Shown piece by piece: positions 28,415-56,216 of a DNA stretch of 64,000 bases. The stretch comes from Candidatus Daviesbacteria bacterium RIFCSPLOWO2_01_FULL_39_23 (GTDB lineage Bacteria; Patescibacteriota; Microgenomatia; Daviesbacterales; UBA10151), in the NCBI GenBank assembly GCA_001776935.1, contig MFDN01000005.1:68893-132892 (forward strand), in the 5' to 3' direction. A model generated the notes under the pieces. That model saw only the letters and a program-made list of their open reading frames with translations, was not told the DNA's origin and searched no databases. Made by a program: the position numbers and the translations under genes. Every line of letters starts with the position of its first letter. Position 1 is the first letter of the stretch.

Positions 28415-28614
28415 ATTTTGATATAGTTCGGTATGTTAACTTGCTGTCGAGGAGATTGTCAAATCAAACAGAAAGCTCCCCGCCAGCGATAGCCTTTCGA
28501 CTACCCATACCCCTTTCGGGATACAACCTTCGCAGATGCTCTGACTAGGAGCTTTTATCTGCGAAGGTTTTGATGCCATGCCCTTGCGGGTTTAGGCGGT
28601 TAAATTGTTAAATT

Positions 28615-31592: not shown

Positions 31593-33275
31593 ATGAAAAC
31601 TGCCATATTCTGCCGAGTAAGCAGTAAAGAACAAGAAGAAACAGGCTACTCCCTGCCAGCTCAGGAGAAGTTCTTGAGAGAGTATGCTGACAAACAGGGC
31701 TTGGAAGTCGCCAAAGTCTTCGCCGTCTCCGAGTCCGCAGCAGGCAAGGTTCAGAGAAAAATCTTCATCGAGATGGTCGCCTATGTCCGCAAGCATACCA
31801 TTCCCACGATTATCGTGGAAACAACTGACCGTTTAACCAGGAATTTCTCTGATGTCCCCACCATTGACTTATGGATTACCGAGAACGAAGAACACCAAGT
31901 CCACCTGGCAAAAGAAGGCTGTATCCTCCACAACTCCTCCCGCTCTCACGAATGGTTTATGTGGCGGGTCAAAGTGGCCACCGCCGAGTATTACGTCCGT
32001 CTTCTTTCAGAGAATGTGAAGAAGGGGCAGAAAGAAAAACTAGCCCAAGGCTGGATCCCCACCAAACCACCACTTGGGTACAAAACAGTGGGTGAAACCG
32101 GCCACAAAATCCATGTCGTTGATGAAGGTGCTTCTAAGCTAGTAATCAAGATGTTTGAGCTCTACGCCTCCGGCGATTATTCCATCAAAAAGCTTGCAAC
32201 CACTATGTATGAAGAAGGCATGCGCTCACCGCAGGGCAACAGACTGGCGATCAGCAGGACCCACTCCCTGCTGCGTGATCCTTTCTATATGGGTAAAATA
32301 AGGTGGAACAATGAGATCAGCGAAGGCAAACATCAACCGTTAATCAGTAAAGAACTATTTGATAAGGTCCAAAATATGCTTGTGAGCAAAACCACCCCTA
32401 AATATATGAAGCACGACTACCTCTTCAAAGGATTAATCCGCTGTGCAGGCTGTGACGGACTGATTACCTGGGAACTACATCGGGGTCATCACTACGGACA
32501 TTGCAACCACTATCACGACTGTACCCAAGAAACGTGGGTCAAGGAACCGGAAACCGAAGAACAACTCTTAGACGGTTTTGATAGCCTCCGCATCAAAAAC
32601 CAGCGGGTAACTGAGTGGCTCAAGAAAGCTCTCAAAGAAAGCCACCAGGACGAAGTTCAATACCACAACAGCACCGTCGGCGATCTGGAAACCCGCTATG
32701 AAGCTGTCAGCAGAAGAATGGACAAGTTGTACGATGACAAGCTCGATGAGAAAATTACTCAGGAGTTTTATAACCGCAAGTTCAAGCAATACTCCAATGA
32801 AAAAGACGAACTAACCGAAACCATCAAACGCCACTCCATCGCCAGCACTGGCTACATAAACTTTGGTATTAATCTCTATGATCTCTCGCAACGAGCCAAA
32901 AACATCTACCTAACCGCCAAAAATAAAGATATGTTGGACGAACAACGAGCACTGATTAGGCTGGTCTTCGCCAAGTTAACGCTCAATGAAGGCAAACTTA
33001 GCTGGGAATACTCCAAGGCATTTAAAATGCTTTCAGAAGCAGTAGCCCAAACCAATTGTTCTAAAGTGGAAAATTTAGAGGATTTTGAAAAAGGAACTTT
33101 CGAACATGCAGAATTGCCCGACAATTCAACACAAAAGGACGCTTTATTGCCTCTGCGTCCCATCTGGCTCCCCCGCGTGGATTCGAACCACGAACCTCGA
33201 TCTTACAGAATTCCACTTGTTACCAAATGGTCTGGACTATCTAATCATCCCAAGATGCGGGAGCCGGGTATATAG
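31593..33275 (+). CDS. Large serine recombinase (resolvase catalytic domain, recombinase domain, zinc ribbon)
   Basis: 560 aa. N-terminal AIFCRVSSKEQ (catalytic Ser); zinc ribbon CAGCDGL...HCNHYHDC. The last ~37 codons run antisense over the tRNA-Asn 3' exon and intron. Confidence 0.85.
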   Translation: MKTAIFCRVSSKEQEETGYSLPAQEKFLREYADKQGLEVAKVFAVSESAAGKVQRKIFIEMVAYVRKHTIPTIIVETTDRLTRNFSDVPTIDLWITENEEHQVHLAKEGCILHNSSRSHEWFMWRVKVATAEYYVRLLSENVKKGQKEKLAQGWIPTKPPLGYKTVGETGHKIHVVDEGASKLVIKMFELYASGDYSIKKLATTMYEEGMRSPQGNRLAISRTHSLLRDPFYMGKIRWNNEISEGKHQPLISKELFDKVQNMLVSKTTPKYMKHDYLFKGLIRCAGCDGLITWELHRGHHYGHCNHYHDCTQETWVKEPETEEQLLDGFDSLRIKNQRVTEWLKKALKESHQDEVQYHNSTVGDLETRYEAVSRRMDKLYDDKLDEKITQEFYNRKFKQYSNEKDELTETIKRHSIASTGYINFGINLYDLSQRAKNIYLTAKNKDMLDEQRALIRLVFAKLTLNEGKLSWEYSKAFKMLSEAVAQTNCSKVENLEDFEKGTFEHAELPDNSTQKDALLPLRPIWLPRVDSNHEPRSYRIPLVTKWSGLSNHPKMREPGI

Positions 33276-33433
33276 TCTCTACACATTTACCCCGCCACAG
33301 CGGGGATTTAGCTCGGGATTACCCTTCGATTACTCTCAGGGCTTCCCCGAATTAGCCCGATTTTCATCTCGGCATTACTGCCGGGAGCTGCCTATTTTGA
33401 CAGGATCTCGCTCTACCGTTGAGCTACAGGGGA
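33165..33433 (-). tRNA. tRNA-Asn (GUU) interrupted by a group I intron; exons 33433-33400 and 33205-33165
   Basis: 5' exon UCCCCUGUAGCUCAACGGUAGAGCGAGAUCCUGU resembles the E. coli tRNA-Asn 5' half. 3' exon UAAGAUCGAGGUUCGUGGUUCGAAUCCACGCGGGGGAGCCA. Joined anticodon loop CUGUUAA. Acceptor pairs with a G-U wobble; CCA encoded. Confidence 0.7.
33206..33399 (-). ncRNA. Group I intron (~194 nt) in the tRNA-Asn anticodon loop, between nt 35 and 36
   Basis: 5' exon ends in U and the intron ends in G (omega-G). The core contains GUGUAGAGACUAUAUACCCGG and UAGAUAGUCCAGACC, which resemble conserved group I P7/P3 and S-element segments recalled from the Azoarcus tRNA-Ile intron (GUGUAGAGACUAGACGG, AGAUAGUCC). 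Confidence 0.6.
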
Positions 33434-33436
33434 TTA

Positions 33437-34132
33437 TTAATGTACGTGAGCTATTCTATCATCCATCAAAGCTGAAATCCACCCCATTATTCGTCGCTGC
33501 TTATCAGAAACACTAAAATTAATCGAAAAAATCCCATATTTATGAATATTTTTTCTAACTTTTCTGCTGTTTATTTTATTTTCTGCAATATATGTTTTGA
33601 AGAATTGGTTCTCCGGAATCCCAGTTATCTTTGTCCAGTATTTCTTTGCTCTATCCACATCTAATCCTTCATGTATCCAAATAGCTCCTCTAAATCTAGA
33701 CAAAGGAATCTCACAAAATTCTTTAAACCAGCTCATCATAAACTTAATTATCTTAGGGTCACTATTGGCCAAGCCAGCCCGACCATCTCCCTTATTCCCT
33801 TCTCCTGCATATAATGTTATTCCTGCTATAAATCTATCCCTTTTGCTTAGATCTCCAAGTTCTTTTTTTGCTTCTTCATAAATAGTTTGTGTTCTAAGAA
33901 TCCTAGCACGTCTTTTATTATCTGCTGCTACAATCGAACCCTTCTTTTGGCCGAACATCTTGTTCTCAAGAAGCTTCTTTTTTTGGTCTTGTGTAAGCTT
34001 AATATCCCGACACCATCTGCTAATAGTATCCTTTGACACATGAATTTGTTGCATTATTTTACCGTAAGATAAACCCTTTTTGCGTAGCGCCTGAGCTTTA
34101 ATCTTCTCTTCTAATTTTCCAACATATCCCAT
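33437..34132 (-). CDS. HTH-domain protein of unknown function; paralog of 2908-3603; abuts the 5' end of tRNA-Asn
   Basis: 231 aa. N-terminal HTH (LSYGKIMQQIHVSKDTISRWCRD). Shares FIAGITLYAGEGNKG, SDPKIIKF and IPENQFFK motifs with its paralog. Confidence 0.55.
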   Translation of the reverse strand: MGYVGKLEEKIKAQALRKKGLSYGKIMQQIHVSKDTISRWCRDIKLTQDQKKKLLENKMFGQKKGSIVAADNKRRARILRTQTIYEEAKKELGDLSKRDRFIAGITLYAGEGNKGDGRAGLANSDPKIIKFMMSWFKEFCEIPLSRFRGAIWIHEGLDVDRAKKYWTKITGIPENQFFKTYIAENKINSRKVRKNIHKYGIFSINFSVSDKQRRIMGWISALMDDRIAHVH

Positions 34133-37959: not shown

Positions 37960-38580
37960 ATATTCCCTGTTCCCTGCTCCACCCAGGATTGGGGAATCAA
38001 TACAATTTACAATGTACAATTTACAATGTACAATTTTTTCCAGCACCTGATTTTTTACTCTTTCTGCAATTTCAGAAGGCAAAACACCTTTTATGAGATC
38101 TCTTTTATCAGCTTCGTAATGAGGTTTGAGTAAAGCAATAATCAAACCATCCGGTTTAAGGAAATTCTTAACAATAGGTAAAATCAGCTCCAGTTTGGTC
38201 CAGCCGGCATCAATTGTGATTAAGTCAACTCCATCCACCTCGGAGGAGTCATGGCTTCCGCTTCGCTCCAGCCTGCCACCATCCGAGGTGTTTTCAAAGT
38301 CACCTTCCAGGTGGGCTTTGACTCCTGGAAGGTGTGTCAGGCGAAGAATATTTGTCCGCTCCATTACTACTACTCTGGGATCATTGCGCAGTTTCCAGGC
38401 CAGTTCCCCATACGCAGTATCCAAAGCATAAACTTTTCTTGCTCCATTTTGCAGTAAACAATCTACAAATCCGCCTGTTGAGGAACCTACGTCGAGGACG
38501 ACGTAATCTTCAATCCTCAATTTCCAATTTTCAATAGCGGATTGCAGTTTTATTCCGCCCCGGGAAACAAATTGATTCAT
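37939..38580 (-). CDS. TlyA-like rRNA 2'-O-methyltransferase (FtsJ fold, no S4 domain)
   Basis: SRGGIKLQSAIENW...VLDVGSSTGGFVDCLLQNGARKVYALDTAYGELAWKLRNDPRV matches the conserved TlyA/FtsJ motifs. Confidence 0.7.
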   Translation of the reverse strand: MNQFVSRGGIKLQSAIENWKLRIEDYVVLDVGSSTGGFVDCLLQNGARKVYALDTAYGELAWKLRNDPRVVVMERTNILRLTHLPGVKAHLEGDFENTSDGGRLERSGSHDSSEVDGVDLITIDAGWTKLELILPIVKNFLKPDGLIIALLKPHYEADKRDLIKGVLPSEIAERVKNQVLEKIVHCKLYIVNCIDSPILGGAGNREYLLLLKP

Positions 38581-43098: not shown

Positions 43099-43925
43099 AT
43101 TACAAATAACCACAGCTACCACAAGGTTAGGCAGCTATTTTTAGTTTGCCGCCTATTGAAACAGCCTGCATGGTGATTAAATTGGATAACATTGAAGGTA
43201 TACTAATAGTCCCCCTGCTTTGCAATCCCTCTTTAAGGTTTCTGGCATTCGCCAAGTCAGACTTGGCATCCGCCAGAGATTCTTCACTGTGCTCAGAATG
43301 ACAATGAGTAATTTTAGGATGACTCGTGGGATGTAATTGCATGTTGGGAAAGATAATACCTTAAGAAAATAAAGATAAGATATAAAAAGAGTAAGAATTA
43401 AGAAAGTAATAGGTGGAGATGTCGGCTTTGCAGCCGAGTCCAAAATTGTAACTTTTCAAACCTCTACAAGCTTATCCAGTTAATTTTTGTTCATCAGTTG
43501 TAACCAACTGGAAGGAAAACTAATGAATGATTGAATTGTCTTTTGTAACTTCGGATCAACCAACACCAAAATTACAGCATCCTGACTTTGTACGTACCTT
43601 AGTATTCCGTCAGAAGGAGAACATTTTCTAAGGTAACCTTTAGCTTAAGCTACTAAAGCAGGCTGTAAACCCGCGAACGGGTTAACAGTACCTGTAAATT
43701 TAGCAGCGAACTGCTTCAGGTAACGAGCAATATCATTGCCGTTTGTGTTTTGAAACCATATTTAACGCTTAAGATTTCTTTAGCGGCTTGCAGTTTTCAA
43801 AGAGCAATCCTGTCGAAACTATACATCCCCAGGAGTGTATATTACCACAAAACAACGCTCAAAAGCAAATCGCCAATACCCAGACAAAACATTCAACGAT
43901 CGTGGTATGTTTTGTATAAGATAAT

Positions 43926-47140: not shown

Positions 47141-48850
47141 TTATTTTTTCTCTATATTAAAAAATGCAAAGCCTTTTTGGGGAATTGCTAGATACCCTGG
47201 TGCTCTAATATTAAACGCCTCCTTAAATACTCCTGCACTTATTCGAATCTCTCCTATGTTGGTTTGAAAAATTATTTCGTTTGTGGAACCGTTACCCTGA
47301 ATTACAGTTACTGAAGAAACCGCAGACGGACCGTTGGACTTTTCGCGAAGCTCTGCATGAGAATAAGGATTAGTACCTGGGTAGCATGAGGTAGTCACCG
47401 GAGTCACTCGATCATCCCTGTATCGCGTTGCGTTAATAATATCCGCCATCTCTTCAGGAGATAACCAGGCATTAGATCTTCCACATTTATTACTATTAAT
47501 ACTGTATCTCTCAGTATACCAGGCCTTATAAAGCCATGGCGAGCCGCCTAATTTATCGTAAGCCTTATCTATAAAATTACTTCCACCAGAACCATCTGTA
47601 GTATCCCAGCCAATCGGTGAAGCAAACCCTCCGTGTGTTGAAGCGTAAAAAGTAACCACATCCTCAACCACCTGACCGCGGGTAGCATTGACCGCATTTT
47701 TCCATGCTTGAGGTGGATTATCAGATTTAGACTTATTAAATACTTGGGCCGCTTCTGTAGTCTTAATCGCCTCTCCTGATTGTTTATATCTCAACGCATA
47801 TGTTCTTGCTGCAACAGCCTGGGCTTTCAACGCTTCCGAATGCCAACTGGAAGGCATCTCAGCAATTCCATATAAGTATTTTTCTTCAAAATTCATCGAG
47901 CCAAAACCTGACACGTTGATATCCCCTCCTGTATCTTTACCCACAGGCTCTTTGCCATAATATGCTTTTAAAATTGCTTTGTAATCCTGACCTGACTCTG
48001 CCCTGCCTCTGGCCCCATATTGGCTCATGCCTTTCCGATGGGTATGCGCACCAAAGGAAAACACCCCAAAATATCCAGCAGGAGCGTTGGCTTTAAAGCC
48101 TTTAATTGAAGCATTTATATCATCTGCCTCTTCACTATCTCCAATAGTCGCAGTAAATTGGCCAGATCTTGCTGCCAAAATCTCCTGTTGTTTGGCGGAA
48201 AGCTCGGCAATTTTCCCTGTCAAATCTGCCTGGTAAGCCTTGGCTTTCTTAATTTCTCCGCCTAAAAAGTCTGCATTTTTATCAACTTCTGCCTGCAAAG
48301 AAGAAAGCTTTACTTTATCTTTTTCCAGTTTTTCTTTTTGGGTTAGAAGATCTATAACTTCCCCTGTAACAGAAGCAATAATCGAGCGGTCTTCGCGGGT
48401 AACTGTCTGCCTATAAGACAGCTCGCGGAACAAATCTCCTGAAGAAATGGATGACAAAAGCACAAGCAAAGGTTCTGCTAAATAAGAGCGGATATAGTAG
48501 GCTTTAACCCGTGTCTCAAGGAGTGCCTGTTGAAGCGCCAGCTTATCCTCCCGGATATCCAAATCTTTTTGCTTTTGCTTAATACTTAAAGATAAATTAT
48601 TTAAATTTGCCTGAATTTGGGCAAGCTGCATTTTTAAGGATTCCAATTGCCCTTCCAAAGGCTTTGTGGCTTTAACAGATGATTCCCTTGCTTTGTTTAA
48701 CTCATCAATTTGTTTTTGCAGGTCTTCTATTTCGTCAGCCTGAGCAGTTGGCAGTAAGTAGCTGGCAGTAAGTATTAAGGGTAAAACAAAAAACAGCATT
48801 CCCATAATACATAATACAAATCCCTTAATACTGCTTTTACGGGCAAACAT
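47141..48850 (-). CDS. SpoIID/LytB-domain protein with N-terminal coiled coil
   Basis: 569 aa. Signal/TM segment, long coiled coil, then the SpoIID signature SEALKAQAVAARTYAL. Confidence 0.65.
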   Translation of the reverse strand: MFARKSSIKGFVLCIMGMLFFVLPLILTASYLLPTAQADEIEDLQKQIDELNKARESSVKATKPLEGQLESLKMQLAQIQANLNNLSLSIKQKQKDLDIREDKLALQQALLETRVKAYYIRSYLAEPLLVLLSSISSGDLFRELSYRQTVTREDRSIIASVTGEVIDLLTQKEKLEKDKVKLSSLQAEVDKNADFLGGEIKKAKAYQADLTGKIAELSAKQQEILAARSGQFTATIGDSEEADDINASIKGFKANAPAGYFGVFSFGAHTHRKGMSQYGARGRAESGQDYKAILKAYYGKEPVGKDTGGDINVSGFGSMNFEEKYLYGIAEMPSSWHSEALKAQAVAARTYALRYKQSGEAIKTTEAAQVFNKSKSDNPPQAWKNAVNATRGQVVEDVVTFYASTHGGFASPIGWDTTDGSGGSNFIDKAYDKLGGSPWLYKAWYTERYSINSNKCGRSNAWLSPEEMADIINATRYRDDRVTPVTTSCYPGTNPYSHAELREKSNGPSAVSSVTVIQGNGSTNEIIFQTNIGEIRISAGVFKEAFNIRAPGYLAIPQKGFAFFNIEKK

Positions 48851-48885
48851 TGTCCTAAAATTTTACCATAAACTCTAATCTCTAG

Positions 48886-48967
48886 ACCCTAAATCCCAAA
48901 ATGTGCTAAGCGCTAAGCTGAAATTTATTGTCCAAAACCATTTTATAGATGGTATAATATAAACATT
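48886..48967 (+). promoter_or_regulatory. Repeated cassette-leader element, copy 1 (CCCTAAATCCCAAAATGTGCTAAGC ... TGTCCAAAA ... TATAAT)
   Basis: Shares CCCTAAA...GTGCTAAGC, AATGTCCA and a -10-like TATAAT with copies at 49569, 50345 and 50650. Confidence 0.5.
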
Positions 48968-49240
48968 ATGAACAAAGCCCAAATCATATCTAACCCCAAA
49001 ATCTTAGGTGGAAAACCCGTGATTGCCGGCACCAGAATTTCAGTGGAACTCATACTGGATAGGATCTCTACCGGAATGAGCGAAAAAGAAATATTAATTG
49101 ATTATCCGCATTTAACAGCTAAACAGATTCAGGCAGCCGTAGCATACGCCAAACGAATAGTTATACAAAAAACTGGCACAAAATTGTCAAGTAAAGACAC
49201 TACACCCGTCACCTTATATACCCATGAAATTTCTCGCTGA
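48968..49240 (+). CDS. DUF433-family protein (antitoxin-like)
   Basis: 90 aa. NPKILGGKPVIAGTRISVELIL typical DUF433. Confidence 0.6.
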   Translation: MNKAQIISNPKILGGKPVIAGTRISVELILDRISTGMSEKEILIDYPHLTAKQIQAAVAYAKRIVIQKTGTKLSSKDTTPVTLYTHEISR

Positions 49241-49565
49241 TGAGGATTTCCCCAAACCTCTGATAATCAAAATTAGGAACTTTGGCTTTTCAATCAAAAC
49301 TATCCAGCAGAAAGATCTTCAAGGATCTTCTGATGAAAGAGTAGCAAGTATCGCTCTCAAAGAAAAACGAATACTTTTAACCTTTGATAAGGATTTCTTA
49401 AAAAACCAGTCTAAAAAATTGCAAGCGGTCATTTTCAGCTTCCCTAAAACTCCAACCGCCGAGATACTTTCTTTAATAGAAATGTTCCTGCGAAATTTGC
49501 CGGAAGAATTATTGAAAAGGAAAATATTAAGATTCAGCAAACGTGGATTTGAAATAATTACTTAG
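49224..49565 (+). CDS. DUF5615/Mut7-C PIN-like protein (toxin-like partner of DUF433)
   Basis: 113 aa. MKFLADEDFP...ILLTFDKDF. Confidence 0.55.
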   Translation: MKFLADEDFPKPLIIKIRNFGFSIKTIQQKDLQGSSDERVASIALKEKRILLTFDKDFLKNQSKKLQAVIFSFPKTPTAEILSLIEMFLRNLPEELLKRKILRFSKRGFEIIT

Positions 49566-49568
49566 TAT

Positions 49569-49662
49569 GACCCTAAATCCCAAAATGTGCTAAGCCACAA
49601 CCAGTTTCATAGTTGTGATAAACTAACTTTAATGTCCAAAAAGATGATATAATACAATCAAT
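49569..49662 (+). promoter_or_regulatory. Repeated cassette-leader element, copy 2
   Basis: CCCTAAATCCCAAAATGTGCTAAGCC...TTAATGTCCAAAAAGATGATATAATAC. Confidence 0.5.
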
Positions 49663-49923
49663 ATGAAAAATATTATTACCAGGAATCCAAAAATTTTAGG
49701 CGGGAAACCCATTATTGCCGGCACCCGGATGTCTGTAGAAGTTATTCTGGAATCTTTAGCCGGAGGCATGAGCATAGAAGAAATGCTAAAAGAATATCCT
49801 TTCTTAAAGAAAGAACATATCCAAGCAGCCATAGATTATGCCGCTAAAATTGTTGGTAAAGAAGAAAGCTACTTGTTTGAAAAAGCTTCTGCTATTACCC
49901 ATGAGATTCATCGCCGACGTTAA
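49663..49923 (+). CDS. DUF433-family protein (second copy)
   Basis: 86 aa. NPKILGGKPIIAGTRMSVEVIL. Confidence 0.6.
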   Translation: MKNIITRNPKILGGKPIIAGTRMSVEVILESLAGGMSIEEMLKEYPFLKKEHIQAAIDYAAKIVGKEESYLFEKASAITHEIHRRR

Positions 49924-50260
49924 TATTCCTCAATTACTTATCACGCGGTTAATCGATTTAGATCATAATGTCCTTGACATTAAAAAACATAATCTGGAAA
50001 TCAGCGATATAGAAATTATTAAGATTGCAAAGAAGGAATCAAGAGTAATACTTACCCGGGATAAAGACTATATAATTTTGGTTCAATTCCCTAGGTATCA
50101 AGTTCCTATTATCGCCATCAGGTTGATCAATCAAACTGATACCCAATATATTACCAGCAAAGTTTTGGAATTTATTAAAAATAATAAAGAATCAATTATC
50201 TTAAATTCTTTAACTGTTATCAGAGAGAATGCTGCTACTTCCTATCAGTACCCACTGTGA
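49901..50260 (+). CDS. DUF5615/Mut7-C PIN-like protein (second copy)
   Basis: Start at MRFIADVN overlapping the DUF433 stop; ...ILTRDKDY. Confidence 0.5.
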   Translation: MRFIADVNIPQLLITRLIDLDHNVLDIKKHNLEISDIEIIKIAKKESRVILTRDKDYIILVQFPRYQVPIIAIRLINQTDTQYITSKVLEFIKNNKESIILNSLTVIRENAATSYQYPL

Positions 50261-50344
50261 TTTTCCTGTCTCAAAAATATATACGATCGTATTAAGTTTT
50301 GTCTATTTTACTAATCATTAAAATTCTAACCACCATTCCCTAGT

Positions 50345-50440
50345 CACTAGGCCCTAAACCCTATCTTGTACTAAGCCACAATCAATTCACGTAGTTGTGG
50401 TAAACTAAAATCAATGTCCAAAATACCTTCTATAGCAATA
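50345..50440 (+). promoter_or_regulatory. Repeated cassette-leader element, copy 3, followed by a truncated 5' remnant of a pilin-like gene
   Basis: CCCTAAACCCTATCTTGTACTAAGCCACAA...TCAATGTCCAAAA. After it, MSKIPSIAIFFV* mirrors the signal peptide of the 50693 gene. Confidence 0.45.
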
Positions 50441-50516
50441 TTTTTTGTATAGTTATTTTTTTCTCCGGTTTCAACCATACCGCCTACGCAATAGACCCAA
50501 AAGATGATTATATTCA

Positions 50517-50690
50517 GACCACCTCTTTAGGAGGAAGGGCTGATTATTTGGTGACAGGAGACGAAGATTTGCTTGCGCTTAGTGCCAAACCTGATTTGGG
50601 AGAACTGAAGATTGTTACGACCAAACAGTTCCTGGCTAAAATTTTACCACAAACTCTGGACCCCAAACTTCTCTTGTGCTAAGCTAAAAT
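50517..50690 (+). pseudogene. 3' remnant of a PIN-domain gene
   Basis: Encodes ...GRADYLVTGDEDLLALSAKPDLGELKIVTTKQFLAKIL*, resembling a PIN-domain C-terminus, with no N-terminal part; overlaps leader element copy 4 (50650-50700). Confidence 0.35.
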
Positions 50691-50692
50691 TA

Positions 50693-52204
50693 ATGTCCAG
50701 GATATTCACTATACCAATAATTTTCCTTTCTGTTGTTATATTTTTCTTCGGTTTTAACCGCATCACCTACGCTATAGATCCAAGAGATCCAAACCTTGAA
50801 ATCATACCCCCATCTCCTGCGGTTACAGACTCACAAGTAACCATCACTGTACAAACCAAAGACGGCAGTAGTTCTTTTAATGAAAAAAAATATTCTTTCG
50901 CTGCATGGAAAGGCGATCTCAGTCTGGTAAACTTTGGTATTTATAAGAGACTCGTAGATTATAATTGTGTTTATATAAACTTTAATGAGAACATCTCTAA
51001 TAGAAAAAACGCAGATCTTAGAATTACTCTGGATAAATCAAAAGCTATTGCTATCTGGCCAGTAGATAACAAGTGCGTAAAAATGGGTGACGTCTGGCAT
51101 TTTCGCTTATGGGCATCTCCAAGCATTGATCCTATGGGTAGCGACTGGGATACCATGATTGAAAATAATTTTCTGGTAGAAGACTACAAGTTTCAGTTTG
51201 TTCAACCAAACGGCAAGATTGCTGCAATCAAAGCAGGAGGAAATACCCAAGATTCTAATGTTTACTCTGGGGAAAATGCAACAGTTGTGCTTTCTAATGC
51301 AGCCGATGGTGCCTCCTACACGTTTTGGTGGCATGGCGCATATGGTATTGCTGAAATATATCATAGCAAAGGATCAGGAAACTTTGAAATCGAAATTAAG
51401 GACCGCTTGAATGGCAAGCAAAGATTGTGTATGGAATTTGGTGATGCTGGATTGCAACCGCCAAAAGGTCATCCTTGCAATCAGCCTGGAAAATTTGTTG
51501 ATTTTGAGTTCCATGGCATTAAAAGACCTCCGACAGCTACTTTGCCTCCTGGAATTCAAACTAAATGTTTTTTATATGCTGCCCACCTGCCAACACTTAA
51601 GGAAAGGGATTCCCTAGCAGTCGGTTACATGAATTTACCTCCACGTCAGGAATTCAAGGCAACACTTGTTAATAAAGATGGCACCGAAGTAAATTCCGCA
51701 AAAGCCGTATCCGACCAAAAAGGAAGTCTACTCATCTCTGTAATAACAGAAATTGGTATTGGTGAAGATTATAAGGTCACCATCACTGATTCTAGCAATA
51801 AAGAGGTTTGCTCAGAAATCTTTTCAGCAACAACAGACGGCACAAGTCCTAAATTCGCTAAATGCGACGATTCTTCTTGCACCCGCTTACCGGATAATAT
51901 GGAATGTAAAGACGGTAGCGGAATCGGTATTAATACTGCCATTGGCTGTATTCATACCAATCCGGCAGCGTTGGTAAAAGATCTTTTAAGGTTTATCCTT
52001 GGAATAGGAGGAGGAATTGCATTTTTAATGATGCTTTTGGGGGTTTTCCAGATGCTGACTTCTGCCGGAAATCCCGAGACTTTAAATGCCGGAAAGGAAA
52101 GATTAACCAGTGCGGTGATTGGACTGCTGTTTGTTATCTTCTCCATCTTGCTGTTACAAATTATAGGGTGGGGTATCTTGAAAATACCGGGATTAGGATC
52201 TTAA
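50693..52204 (+). CDS. Large secreted protein with a C-terminal TrbC/VirB2-like pilin module
   Basis: Probable start at MSRIFTIP inside ORF 50612-52204; signal peptide ...NRITYA/IDP. C-terminus FILGIGGGIAFLMMLLGVFQMLTSAGNPETLNAGKERLTSAVIGLLFVIF matches the pilin-like paralog motif. Confidence 0.5.
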   Translation: MSRIFTIPIIFLSVVIFFFGFNRITYAIDPRDPNLEIIPPSPAVTDSQVTITVQTKDGSSSFNEKKYSFAAWKGDLSLVNFGIYKRLVDYNCVYINFNENISNRKNADLRITLDKSKAIAIWPVDNKCVKMGDVWHFRLWASPSIDPMGSDWDTMIENNFLVEDYKFQFVQPNGKIAAIKAGGNTQDSNVYSGENATVVLSNAADGASYTFWWHGAYGIAEIYHSKGSGNFEIEIKDRLNGKQRLCMEFGDAGLQPPKGHPCNQPGKFVDFEFHGIKRPPTATLPPGIQTKCFLYAAHLPTLKERDSLAVGYMNLPPRQEFKATLVNKDGTEVNSAKAVSDQKGSLLISVITEIGIGEDYKVTITDSSNKEVCSEIFSATTDGTSPKFAKCDDSSCTRLPDNMECKDGSGIGINTAIGCIHTNPAALVKDLLRFILGIGGGIAFLMMLLGVFQMLTSAGNPETLNAGKERLTSAVIGLLFVIFSILLLQIIGWGILKIPGLGS

Positions 52205-52224: not shown

Positions 52225-52596
52225 ATGCAAAATGACAGTGTAAAATTCAAAATTGAGTTCAAGAAAAGACTGTACAGTTTTGCATTAAAACTCATAACAT
52301 TTATCGATCAGCTACCAAATGATAATGTTTCTAAAAGAATCGGAGACCAACTTTTAAGAAGCGGCACGAGTATCATAGGAAATTATATCGAAGCCACAGC
52401 CTCCAGCTCAAAAAAAGACTTCACTAATTTTTTTAATCATTCGTTAAAATCAGCTAACGAAAGCAAACTATGGGTATCCCTTTTAAAAGACACAGGCAGG
52501 GCTGTAAAAGAAAAAACCGAATGGTTTATTGTTGAACTGGATGAAATATCAAAAATTTTTGCCTCTTCAATATTAACTCTAAAAGGTAGAAAATAA
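52225..52596 (+). CDS. Four-helix-bundle protein (23S rRNA intervening-sequence protein family)
   Basis: 123 aa. IGDQLLRSGTSIIGNYIEA...KKDFTNFFNHSLKSANESKLW matches the family signature. Confidence 0.55.
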   Translation: MQNDSVKFKIEFKKRLYSFALKLITFIDQLPNDNVSKRIGDQLLRSGTSIIGNYIEATASSSKKDFTNFFNHSLKSANESKLWVSLLKDTGRAVKEKTEWFIVELDEISKIFASSILTLKGRK

Positions 52597-55756: not shown

Positions 55757-55987
55757 TCAATTTTTTAAGGCTTTACTGAATTCTTCTATAGACATATTTA
55801 GGTCGTCAATTATGGCTTTTAATGTTCCGCGCCTTATTTCTTGAGTTGGATGATAAGGGATAGTGGTTCTTCTGCCGTCGGCATGCTTAAGTTGAACATG
55901 ACTGCCTACCTGATGATATTTCAAAAATCCCAATTTGTTGAGCGTTTTTAGAAGTTGTCTGGCTTTAACAACAGGTAACTTAGGCAT
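55757..55987 (-). CDS. hicA: HicA-like mRNA interferase toxin
   Basis: 76 aa. ...LKYHQVGSHVQLKHADGRRTTIPYHP... HicA/YcfA pattern. Confidence 0.65.
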   Translation of the reverse strand: MPKLPVVKARQLLKTLNKLGFLKYHQVGSHVQLKHADGRRTTIPYHPTQEIRRGTLKAIIDDLNMSIEEFSKALKN

Positions 55988-56216
55988 TAAAAGTAATTGT
56001 TTGGATTACCTCCAGGGAATTTTTCTCCTGCGGAGGCGTGACACCATCTTTGTGCAACCCTTCCAGATGGCAACGGATAGCTTCTTCTAAATTATCTTTA
56101 GTTTCTTCGATAGTATCACCCACAGTATGAACGCCCTTTAAAATAGGCACAAATCCATGGTAACCCTTTTCATCAGGTTCAATAATGGTTCTATAAGTAT
56201 ATGTTTTCATATTCAA
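55980..56216 (-). CDS. hicB: HicB-like antitoxin
   Basis: 78 aa. YRTIIEPDEKGYHGFVPILKGVHTVGDTIEE... HicB/UPF0150 pattern; overlaps hicA. Confidence 0.65.
   Translation of the reverse strand: MNMKTYTYRTIIEPDEKGYHGFVPILKGVHTVGDTIEETKDNLEEAIRCHLEGLHKDGVTPPQEKNSLEVIQTITFNA

Follow-up and report, generated by a model that had tools for sequence, protein, structure and literature searches.

A predicted SpoIID/pilin promoter region is multiplied between gene cassettes at an integration hotspot of Candidatus Daviesbacteria

A stretch of 64,000 nucleotides (nt) from contig MFDN01000005.1 of Candidatus Daviesbacteria bacterium RIFCSPLOWO2_01_FULL_39_23, here called the window, contains four direct copies of a composite repeat between a SpoIID-domain gene and the gene of a pilin-fusion protein. 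Two predicted toxin-antitoxin (TA) cassettes and the remnants of other genes are lodged between the copies. By comparison with related genomes, the repeat is predicted to be the native divergent promoter region of the two flanking genes together with the first 8-13 nt of the pilin open reading frame (ORF). The spacer between these genes is occupied by cassettes in many Candidatus Daviesbacteria, and copies of the promoter-start module bracket cassettes there as well. The cassettes probably move by homologous recombination, for which the conserved promoter module would serve as portable homology. What is new here is that the promoter-start module of a neighbouring gene is multiplied at a known kind of hotspot, and that this is more general than one window.

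Members of the Candidate Phyla Radiation (CPR), or Patescibacteria, have tiny genomes in which defence and TA systems are often said to be scarce, and their ways of acquiring genes are poorly known. The locus provides one concrete and recurrent route of gene gain, with a landing pad in more than half of the Daviesbacteria sampled. Here the promoter has itself been multiplied and apparently serves again as the homology by which cassettes pass from genome to genome, and cassette turnover is linked to a fast-evolving surface pilin gene. For an uncultured lineage, the locus also offers a well-conserved candidate promoter architecture, leaderless and with an extended -10, that is of help in annotating gene starts. 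If a dedicated recombinase were at work, this would be a new kind of cassette platform; if none is, the locus would be a natural example of short conserved regulatory DNA acting as portable homology.

Repeat copies in the window

Four copies of the composite element, all in the same orientation, were recovered by sequence reading, by a repeat finder and in a four-way alignment, at the places where an earlier note, made from the sequence alone, had reported them. Copy 1 (48851-48937) is a degenerate short form, copy 2 (49569-49641) a long form, copy 3 (50313-50423) a long form with a pilin-like continuation to 50505, and copy 4 (50636-50702) a short form; all are on the plus strand. From 32 pilin-proximal promoters of other genomes, with the window excluded, a weight matrix of 28 nt was derived and applied to both strands with a threshold of at least 12 bits. 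Copies 2, 3 and 4 score 27.8, 36.8 and 38.4 bits, and no other hit at this threshold was found on either strand of the 64-kb window; the phenomenon itself recurs across Candidatus Daviesbacteria. Copy 1, at 4.8 bits, is missed by the fixed-spacing matrix because its ATG and its spacing are altered. Shuffles of the 655 kb of sequence scanned in all gave a top score of 13.8 bits and about 1 hit at 12-14 bits.

The 25-mer CCCTAAATCCCAAAATGTGCTAAGC occurs twice, with 0 occurrences expected from 100 shuffles, and together with the matrix scores this separates the repeat from a short AT-rich coincidence. The motif GTGCTAAGC by itself is not significant (7 matches with at most 1 mismatch vs 10.8 expected); the significance comes from the combination and order of the blocks and not from this short motif.

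Identity of the repeat

In three relatives, reached through their pilin homologues, SmpB, a 607-amino acid (aa) gene, a 190-aa gene and the SpoIID gene lie on the minus strand, and this block faces a plus-strand pilin-fusion gene followed by a row of small pilins. The gap between the SpoIID and pilin genes is only 75 and 47 nt long in two of the three, and contains the same blocks in the same order as the repeat (CAT-..CCTAAAATTTTACCA...TTGTGCTAAGCT-7 nt-ATGTCCAAA). The compact spacer in relatives has 41-77 nt and reads CAT-..TAAAATTTTACCA..(7-nt repeats/TAGACC)..TGnTAAGCT-7 nt-ATGTCCAAA. The presence of the same blocks in this short spacer points to the native promoter region plus the pilin start, where the earlier note had seen a generic leader that heads cassettes.

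The block CTAAAATTTTACCA (TAAAATTTTACCA) reads TGGTAAAAT on the opposite strand, 9 nt before the SpoIID ATG, and is the predicted SpoIID promoter. The CCCTAAA/CTCTAGA part belongs to a short 7-nt repeat array that ends in a -35-like unit, TAGACC or TGGACC, 17-18 nt from the -10 hexamer. The succession of TGnTAAGCT, 7 nt and ATG is kept in about 40 genomes. The TG expected at -15/-14 of an extended -10, one base ahead of a TAnnnT-type hexamer, is present in most of the approximately 40 orthologous promoters. The hexamer is followed by the ATG after 7 nt in 32 of 42 genomes and mostly after 6 or 8 nt in the remainder, and a Shine-Dalgarno GGAGG is absent. The GTGCTAAGCT block looks like the extended -10 box of a leaderless pilin mRNA, and, judged by consensus and conservation, copy 4 would be the promoter and start that drive the pilin-fusion gene.

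The earlier suggestion that the element carries a promoter stands as a prediction, with another promoter block: it is GTGCTAAGCT (TGnTAAGCT), whereas the TATAAT that had been named belongs to the cassettes' own extended -10 boxes. TATAAT accompanies copies 1 and 2, where it lies outside the shared element (TGGTATAAT, TGATATAAT), and is absent from copies 3 and 4. The element was also said to supply a gene start. This applies to copies 3 and 4, in which AATGTCCA is the pilin start; the (A/T)TGTCCAAAA of the other two copies, 1 and 2, is a scar left by that start and does not begin the TA gene downstream.

The segment CTAAAATTTTACCAYAAACTCT upstream of copies 1 and 4 was first taken for the tail of a PIN gene, because the reading frame of the PIN remnant described below continues through it; this was rejected, as the segment adjoins the SpoIID start in the empty sites of relatives. 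Also rejected was the idea that the CCCTAAA 7-nt repeats are a hotspot-specific signal, given that similar period-7 CTAR arrays occur elsewhere in these genomes. There are 23 such arrays outside the hotspot vs 16-21 inside, and with the hotspot making up only 5.6% of the sequence they are enriched there.

Anatomy of the four copies

Copy 1 contains the SpoIID promoter segment CTAAAATTTTACCATAAACTCT (48855-48876), whose minus-strand TGGTAAAAT lies at 48868-48860, again 9 nt before the SpoIID ATG. The 7-nt repeats (48875-48895) with the -35-like TAGACC (48883-48888) are followed by TGTGCTAAGC (48902-48911), a 7-nt GCTAAGC duplication (tandem region 48905-48919) and TAAGCT (48914-48919). Next comes ATTGTCCAAAA, in which the pilin ATG is changed to ATT/TTG; the copy reads ATTGTCCA where the others read AATGTCCA. 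With its start codon lost and its spacing changed, it appears to be decaying. In copy 2 the arms of an inverted repeat (49595-49603 and 49610-49618) precede TGaTAAACT (hexamer 49619-49624), 7 nt and ATGTCCAAAA (49632-49641). The block from the -35 to the box, GACCCTAAATCCCAAAATGTGCTAAGC in copy 2, is identical between copies 1 and 2 at 27 of 27 positions.

Copy 3 begins with AATCAT (50313-50318), a remnant of a SpoIID start, and a diverged promoter segment TAAAATTCTAACCACCAT. The 7-nt repeats (50340-50360), TGTACTAAGC (50367-50376), the inverted repeat arms (50376-50384 and 50392-50400) and TAAACT (50401-50406; TGgTAAACT) follow, and after a further 7 nt the ATG at 50414. AATCAT is the variant of the SpoIID start seen in L003 and L006 (related loci are given L numbers here), this genome's own being AACAT, and the copy also bears the TAAAATTCTA variant. 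Over 41 nt it matches the L057 long leader with about 90% identity, and it is a complete copy of an 'empty site'. Copy 4 consists of the SpoIID promoter segment again (CTAAAATTTTACCACAAACTCT, 50636-50657), the -35 TGGACC (50657-50662), a 17-nt spacer with TG at 50677-50678, the -10 TAAGCT (50680-50685; TGcTAAGCT), and 7 nt before the ATG at 50693, an architecture kept in 40 genomes. The 22-nt CTAAAATTTTACCAYAAACTCT is 95% identical between copies 1 and 4 (48855-48876; 50636-50657), and copy 3 has a diverged version of it, with AATCAT before it. The promoter consensus is preserved in copies 2 and 3, which may direct transcription into cassette 2 and into the scar region, respectively.

Copies 2 and 3, the long form, differ from the short copies 1 and 4 by an extra inverted repeat with a 9-bp stem (CCACAAYNA...TAGTTGTGR). 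Sixteen distinct long-form leaders share GCTAAGC-CCACAAYTA-loop-TARTTGTGG-TAARCT. The stem is paired in 93% of cells, the loops have 6-25 nt, and one stem position alternates between U-A (7 sequences) and C-G (5 sequences); support for the stem against shuffles is modest (9-14 of 500). The long form is found at an empty site in L043, and two hairpin units stand in tandem in L079. The repeat could be a regulator site, a DNA hairpin or a recombination footprint. Known RNA families were rejected for want of an Rfam match: the region gave no gathering-level hits and none at E ≤ 0.01 in 48700-50900, and the two hits present (E 0.019 and 0.31) are at chance level.

The SpoIID-pilin hotspot in Candidatus Daviesbacteria

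A SpoIID alignment scan with one genome per species gave about 50 Daviesbacteria loci, in 42 of which both genes were placed. The SpoIID-pilin spacer ranges from 22 to 4148 nt in these 42 loci and exceeds 300 nt in 25 of them, vs 7 of 138 neighbouring spacers (Fisher p = 1.4e-13; 2/49, 2/47 and 3/42 for the three neighbouring spacers of the same loci). Sixteen loci have a spacer of 22-149 nt with the block order unchanged. The spacer is a lineage-wide integration hotspot between conserved genes, so that the cassette hotspot suspected from the window extends to the lineage.

The cargo is mostly TA- or defence-like and includes BrnT/BrnA, HicA/HicB, DinJ/YafQ-type, VapB/PIN (VapBC), Phd/PIN_3, MazE/PIN and MNT/HepT pairs, AbiEii, Fic, AAA_14/DUF4143 ATPases, 23S_rRNA_IVP four-helix proteins and DUF433/DUF5615. 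The cassettes carry predicted promoters of their own (TGnTATAAT or TTGACA...TATTAT), and several are inverted. No recombinase was found among 20 hotspot ORFs searched against Pfam, in precomputed Pfam annotation within 10 kb, or in the hotspots of three relatives. Among the contigs read for this species the array was not polymorphic, 23 of 23 contigs with an identical pilin or SpoIID protein being arranged alike.

The hotspots of L032 and L012 have GC-rich palindromic inserts of about 75 and 150 nt, resembling miniature inverted-repeat transposable elements (MITEs), within the promoter module; the L032 insert has CTAG on each side, relative to the uninterrupted L005. The motif TTTGYAAAGCAAA (within CAACGAATTTTGCAAAGCAAAATTAA) occurs five times in the 655 kb, always inside hotspots and on the pilin strand, 92-119 nt upstream of the module ATG (L003, L008, L026, L057 (twice) and L074); it is absent from the window.

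Module copies and cassette junctions in relatives

Matrix hits in the 655 kb fall at the pilin start in 34 loci and at 15 extra sites in the hotspots of 11 loci; five further hits represent loci in which the pilin start was missed or mis-set. All 15 extra copies lie inside hotspots and on the pilin strand, with zero in the rest of the 655 kb. Extra copies of the promoter plus ATGTCCAA are found in the window and in L012, L026, L035, L039, L044, L048, L051, L053, L055 and L057, and more arrays in the metagenome loci L074, L086, L088 and L093. In at least 11 genomes, 2-4 direct module copies bracket cassettes, all on the pilin strand, and the non-terminal copies stop 7-13 nt past the A of the ATG.

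When metagenomes were searched for the module, 39 loci came up. Where the contig is long enough for its context to be judged, high-scoring hits adjoin SpoIID and/or pilin genes. Exceptions are L099, in an unrelated context, and L073, which lies downstream of a small pilin gene; another six or so low-scoring hits are at chance level. Viral contigs gave zero matches to the module, and carriage by phage was rejected on this ground.

Individual cassettes can be followed between genomes. An orthologue of cassette 1 of the window is flanked in L012 by the perfect 30-nt direct repeat TTGTGGTAAACTGAATTTAATGGGTAAAAA, and directly follows the SpoIID promoter in L079, where the left module copy is missing. 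The cassette 2 orthologue in L093 is followed by another module and a Phd-PIN cassette. In L057, L074 and L093 the junctions of the latter cassette with the module agree to within 3 nt, at differing array positions. An ATPase cassette (AAA; L035, L073) and a RelE-like pair (L039, L051, L095) each keep the same junction, with 3-17 nt of differing filler. Small tandem duplications within the module were also observed, namely ATGTCCAAAAT x2 in L074 (reverse complement, ~5908) and CTAAG x2 in L009 and L035.

Module copies within one genome often share species-specific bases: those of L012 are identical at 30 of 30 positions, including their own ATGGGTAAAAA, and those of L057 share the spacer TTTGGATA. 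Between genomes whose SpoIID proteins are less than 50% identical, the module is 85-96% identical.

Cassettes and remnants in the window

The left flank of the hotspot is formed by the SpoIID-domain gene (47141..48850, minus strand; 569 aa; Pfam PF08486, E 3.6e-18), which is syntenic in all relatives. The remaining features of the hotspot are on the plus strand unless stated otherwise. Cassette 1 consists of a DUF433 gene (48968-49240; PF04255) and a PIN-like DUF5615 gene (49224-49565; PF18480) that overlap by 17 nt. Its own extended -10, TGGTATAAT (48950..48958), lies 9 nt before the DUF433 ATG and also precedes the orthologous cassette in L012 and L079. Cassette 2 has the same make-up, with DUF433 at 49663-49923 and DUF5615 at 49901-50260 (Pfam), an overlap of 23 nt, and its own extended -10 TGATATAAT (49645..49653) 9 nt ahead of the DUF433 start codon; in the L093 orthologue, TGGTATAAT takes this place. 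Pfam E-values are 4e-24 and 1e-24 for DUF433 and 5e-18 and 2e-17 for DUF5615, which confirms the two tandem pairs described in the earlier note. Both cassettes are predicted to be PIN-COG2442 TA pairs.

The two pairs had also been described as duplicates of each other. They share 50.6% (DUF433) and 35.6% (DUF5615) aa identity and 61% and 51% at the DNA level, so that they are old paralogues and not the product of a recent duplication, and each has closer orthologues in the hotspots of other genomes. Orthologues of cassette 1 occupy the same hotspot in L012 (78% aa identity) and L079 (81%), and the DUF5615 gene of cassette 2 has an orthologue of 91% aa identity in L093, joined to ATGTCCAAAA at the same position. 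Just 3' of cassette 2 lies an imperfect palindrome (50272..50301, no strand assigned) around TACGATCGTA (50282-50291). This core occurs once in the window and once in L003 (6233-6242), each time within the hotspot and inside a longer palindrome, with unlike outer arms.

Copy 3 leads into the truncated 5' end of a pilin-fusion gene (50414..50505), with an ORF MSKIPSIAIFFV* at 50414-50452 and its stop at 50450-50452. The 92 nt are 78-79% (repeat finder) or 71% (global alignment) identical to the start of the resident gene, so that the truncated signal-peptide ORF reported earlier is real. At about 50503 it is fused to the last 45 codons of a PIN_3 toxin, the 3' remnant (50503..50643; ~45 codons) of a Phd-PIN cassette. 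At 50503-50637 this remnant, likewise recognised in the earlier note, is 66.7% identical over 45 aa (blastp) to residues 111-155 of the 157-residue PIN protein of the L057 hotspot (PF13470 PIN_3, E 1.5e-20), and 93% over 45 nt. Both pieces, of the PIN gene and of the pilin start, are scars left by recombination. In the simplest reading, the history of the window would consist of successive recombinations, each bringing or regenerating a promoter-start module, and a later deletion of Phd and most of PIN.

The right flank is the pilin-fusion gene (50693..52204; 503 aa), with a variable N-terminal domain and a C-terminal T4SS_pilin domain (PF18895, residues 429-489), in agreement with its first description as a pilin fusion. 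Homologues are at best 34-41% identical over their full length and up to about 80% at the C-terminus. The N-terminal domain of about 400 aa is hypervariable, and its relatedness does not follow that of SpoIID: the closest full-length homologue is that of L003, where SpoIID is only 47% identical, whereas in L058, L012 and L008 SpoIID is 74-78% identical, yet the match is limited to the pilin C-terminus. This suggests diversifying selection on a surface protein or replacement of its alleles, and the lack of tracking between N-domains and SpoIID suggests that alleles are replaced at the locus. Identical pilin and SpoIID proteins are found on aquifer metagenome contigs, and homologues are annotated as Candidatus Daviesbacteria or Patescibacteria.

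Proposed mode of cassette movement

Movement of cassettes by homologous recombination through the promoter module is considered rather likely. The module is among the few stretches conserved at the DNA level between species and could in this way act as a portable homology arm. DNA from the hotspot of another Daviesbacterium would recombine via the module, either by uptake and RecA recombination or by unequal or Campbell-type exchange between copies. A donor fragment made up of SpoIID promoter, module, cassette, module and pilin 5' end would represent a homology-flanked insertion relative to an empty recipient. The exchange would restore an intact promoter and ATG beside the pilin gene and leave extra direct copies between cassettes. 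Later exchanges between copies would give mosaics, such as the short and long forms, the 27/27 block of copies 1 and 2, and deletions; the fusion of a truncated pilin start with the 3' end of a PIN gene might arise in the same way, as might the decayed start codon of copy 1. Patescibacteria have been reported to carry genes for homologous recombination and DNA uptake (PMC12455944).

Several points weigh against this account. The first duplication of the module is not explained by homologous recombination, and a site-specific enzyme would likewise account for the tight clustering of junctions between +7 and +13. In about 15 occupied hotspots (L003, L015 and L079 among them) the module is not duplicated and the insertion lies between the two promoters; module duplication is therefore not the sole route. 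Conservation of the module could result from selection on a regulator site rather than from exchange, and no event of gain or loss was caught among the 23 same-species contigs. As to the promoter, its one strong part is the extended -10, with a weak -35; a generic sigma-70 -35/-10 scan did not call these sites, the generic promoter and terminator scan being uninformative (7 hits vs 7.4 expected, zero terminators). Promoter function, transcription starts and leaderless translation are all deduced from consensus.

An integron-like site-specific system, in which the module, especially its long hairpin form, is an att-type site and circular cassettes are handled by an unlinked tyrosine or serine recombinase, is regarded as unlikely. 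Arrays of up to at least three direct modules do bracket compact cassettes, but in L074 a pair of modules encloses several cassettes that no module separates. In many genomes the junctions are confined to 7 nt after ATGTCCAA, and a given cassette has the same junction across array positions; nevertheless the junctions vary by several nt, the 3-17 nt of filler differ by genome, and many insertions are located elsewhere in the spacer. Cassette 3' ends lie 0-30 nt from the next module, and the TAG stop codon coincides with the beginning of the -35 TAGACC in L035 and L044. Although the stem, its compensatory pair and the loop of 6-25 nt fit a folded-strand site and not a dimer operator, the hairpin does not occur in copies 1 and 4 or in most empty sites, and is unlike attC in size and in the R''/R' boxes. 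Tandem duplications at the junction (ATGTCCAAAAT x2 in L074, GCTAAGC x2 in copy 1) and the TA-dominated cargo, like that of sedentary chromosomal integrons, are in line with such a system; the cassettes, however, occur in both orientations with their own promoters, and no integrase is present in or near any hotspot examined. Equally doubtful is a novel integrase-unlinked cassette-array system whose promoter-start module (-35 TAGACC...TGnTAAGCT...ATGTCCAAA, with an optional hairpin) doubles as recombination site. TA, defence and ATPase cassettes may in such a system be stockpiled before the hypervariable pilin gene through an unlinked recombinase or a short-homology pathway.

There is little to recommend a selected regulatory module, that is, a pilin promoter with a regulator site copied before TA operons for the sake of co-regulation. 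Module copies in L026, L039, L048 and L051 are followed by a cassette that reads in the other direction, TA operons have extended -10 boxes of their own, copy 1 is decaying, and copy 3 drives just a 12-codon ORF and a gene remnant. In its favour, copies 2 and 3 are close to consensus (27.8 and 36.8 bits), the module is better conserved than the flanking proteins, and the inverted repeat overlaps the promoter.

Still less probable is a purely local tandem duplication, with units of leader plus DUF433/DUF5615 and leader plus pilin 5' end multiplied by unequal crossing-over and then diverging, without horizontal input. The direct orientation, the units of 684-695 nt, the 27/27 identity of the block in copies 1 and 2, and the species-specific bases common to module copies in L012, L057, L035 and L053 are what it would give. 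Comparisons of orthologues nonetheless appear largely to refute it: the TA pairs share only 50.6%/35.6% protein and 61%/51% DNA identity and have closer orthologues elsewhere (78-81% for cassette 1 in L012 and L079, 91% for the cassette 2 DUF5615 in L093). Copy 3 bears the foreign AATCAT remnant and the TAAAATTCTA variant, the PIN remnant comes from a third cassette type, and unrelated cassettes occupy the same place in other genomes.

A dispersed mobile or structured-RNA element (MITE or repetitive extragenic palindrome, riboswitch, small RNA) that clusters here by chance is very improbable in spite of the hairpin in copies 2 and 3 and the GC-rich palindromic MITE-like inserts inside the module in L032 and L012, as all module copies in the 64-kb window and in some 600 kb of related loci lie within the hotspot, the placeable high-scoring metagenome hits are at the same locus except for L099, L073 and the approximately six chance-level ones, there is no match to viral contigs and no Rfam family at E ≤ 0.01, and terminal inverted repeats and target-site duplications are lacking.

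Comparison with known systems

The closest known concept is the integration hotspot flanked by core genes, which is said to go back to Oliveira, Touchon and Rocha in 2017. Many such hotspots have no recognisable mobile-element machinery, and their turnover is attributed to homologous recombination in the conserved flanks. The present locus is alike in that a fixed interval between conserved genes has accessory content differing among relatives. It is unlike in that the homology also resides in a promoter-start module of about 50-90 nt, itself multiplied between cassettes, and in that the interval is the 41-77-nt divergent promoter region of a CPR bacterium.

Sedentary chromosomal integrons, whose cargo is dominated by TA pairs, resemble the locus in their compact, often TA-type cassettes with short direct repeats at one locus and an order differing among relatives. 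Here, in contrast, there is no adjacent intI, the repeat is a promoter with a start codon and not attC, the hairpin is short and optional, the cassettes have their own promoters in either orientation, and the junctions are not base-precise. Integron cassettes are mostly promoterless and share the orientation of a common promoter, and each is followed by an attC site, an imperfect palindrome of 57-141 nt with R''/L''...L'/R' boxes (RYYYAAC...GTTRRRY). An attC-like site was rejected for the module, whose 9-bp stem (CCACAAYTA/TARTTGTGG) spans about 25-40 nt and matches the consensus only at AAC...GTT.

The pdif modules of Acinetobacter plasmids, like other Xer-dependent integrated elements, are small, often of TA type (BrnT/BrnA, HigBA), have sites of about 28 nt and no recombinase gene in the module, and are shuffled from one replicon to another. 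Small TA modules bounded by site copies, without a recombinase gene, are common to both; pdif sites, however, alternate in orientation and have an 11-6-11 XerC/XerD structure, whereas the copies here are all direct with no such architecture evident. No convincing dif-like arms were seen by eye, without a Daviesbacteria-specific dif model. A dif/terminus or origin appears unlikely, there being no switch of GC skew at the locus, where skew follows the gene strand.

The PIN-COG2442 (DUF433) pair was reportedly predicted by Makarova et al. in 2009. Both cassettes correspond to such VapBC-type pairs in their overlapping DUF433 and DUF5615/PIN-like genes. The pairs are themselves ordinary; what is unusual is that they are embedded between copies of a neighbouring gene's promoter. 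Under the name vapBC10, a pair of this type has been studied in Synechocystis (PMC3834315). While the PIN-COG2442 type of pair is known, the literature searches turned up no description of the present locus.

Other features of the window

Two further genes are insertions relative to L005 and L006: a 23S_rRNA_IVP four-helix gene (52225-52596) right after the pilin-fusion gene, and a HicA/HicB pair (55757-56216) after the last small pilin of the same pilin operon. At the position of the IVP gene, downstream of the pilin-fusion gene, L024, L057 and L058 have arrays of CTAGACT-type 7-nt repeats. Period-7 tandem repeats of 3-8 units occur in the window at 38001, 44370, 52216, 52990, 53030, 55358, 56383 and 63303, mostly at or just within the 5' ends of pilin-like and neighbouring genes, and some are 100% identical (AAATATC x4.4, CTTTACC x4.3). 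A unit of 7 nt is not a multiple of three, and at gene starts it could allow on/off switching by slippage.

A group I intron (RF00028, 55 bits, E 2.9e-11) was identified at 33213-33409 on the minus strand, 28 nt downstream of the stop of the minus-strand ORF 33437-34132 and opposite the 3' end of the plus-strand ORF 31593-33275; the window gave no rRNA hit. Other structured RNAs are a LOOT RNA (28488-28598, minus strand; RF03000, 78.7 bits), a transfer-messenger RNA beside smpB (43411-43830, minus strand) and seven tRNAs.

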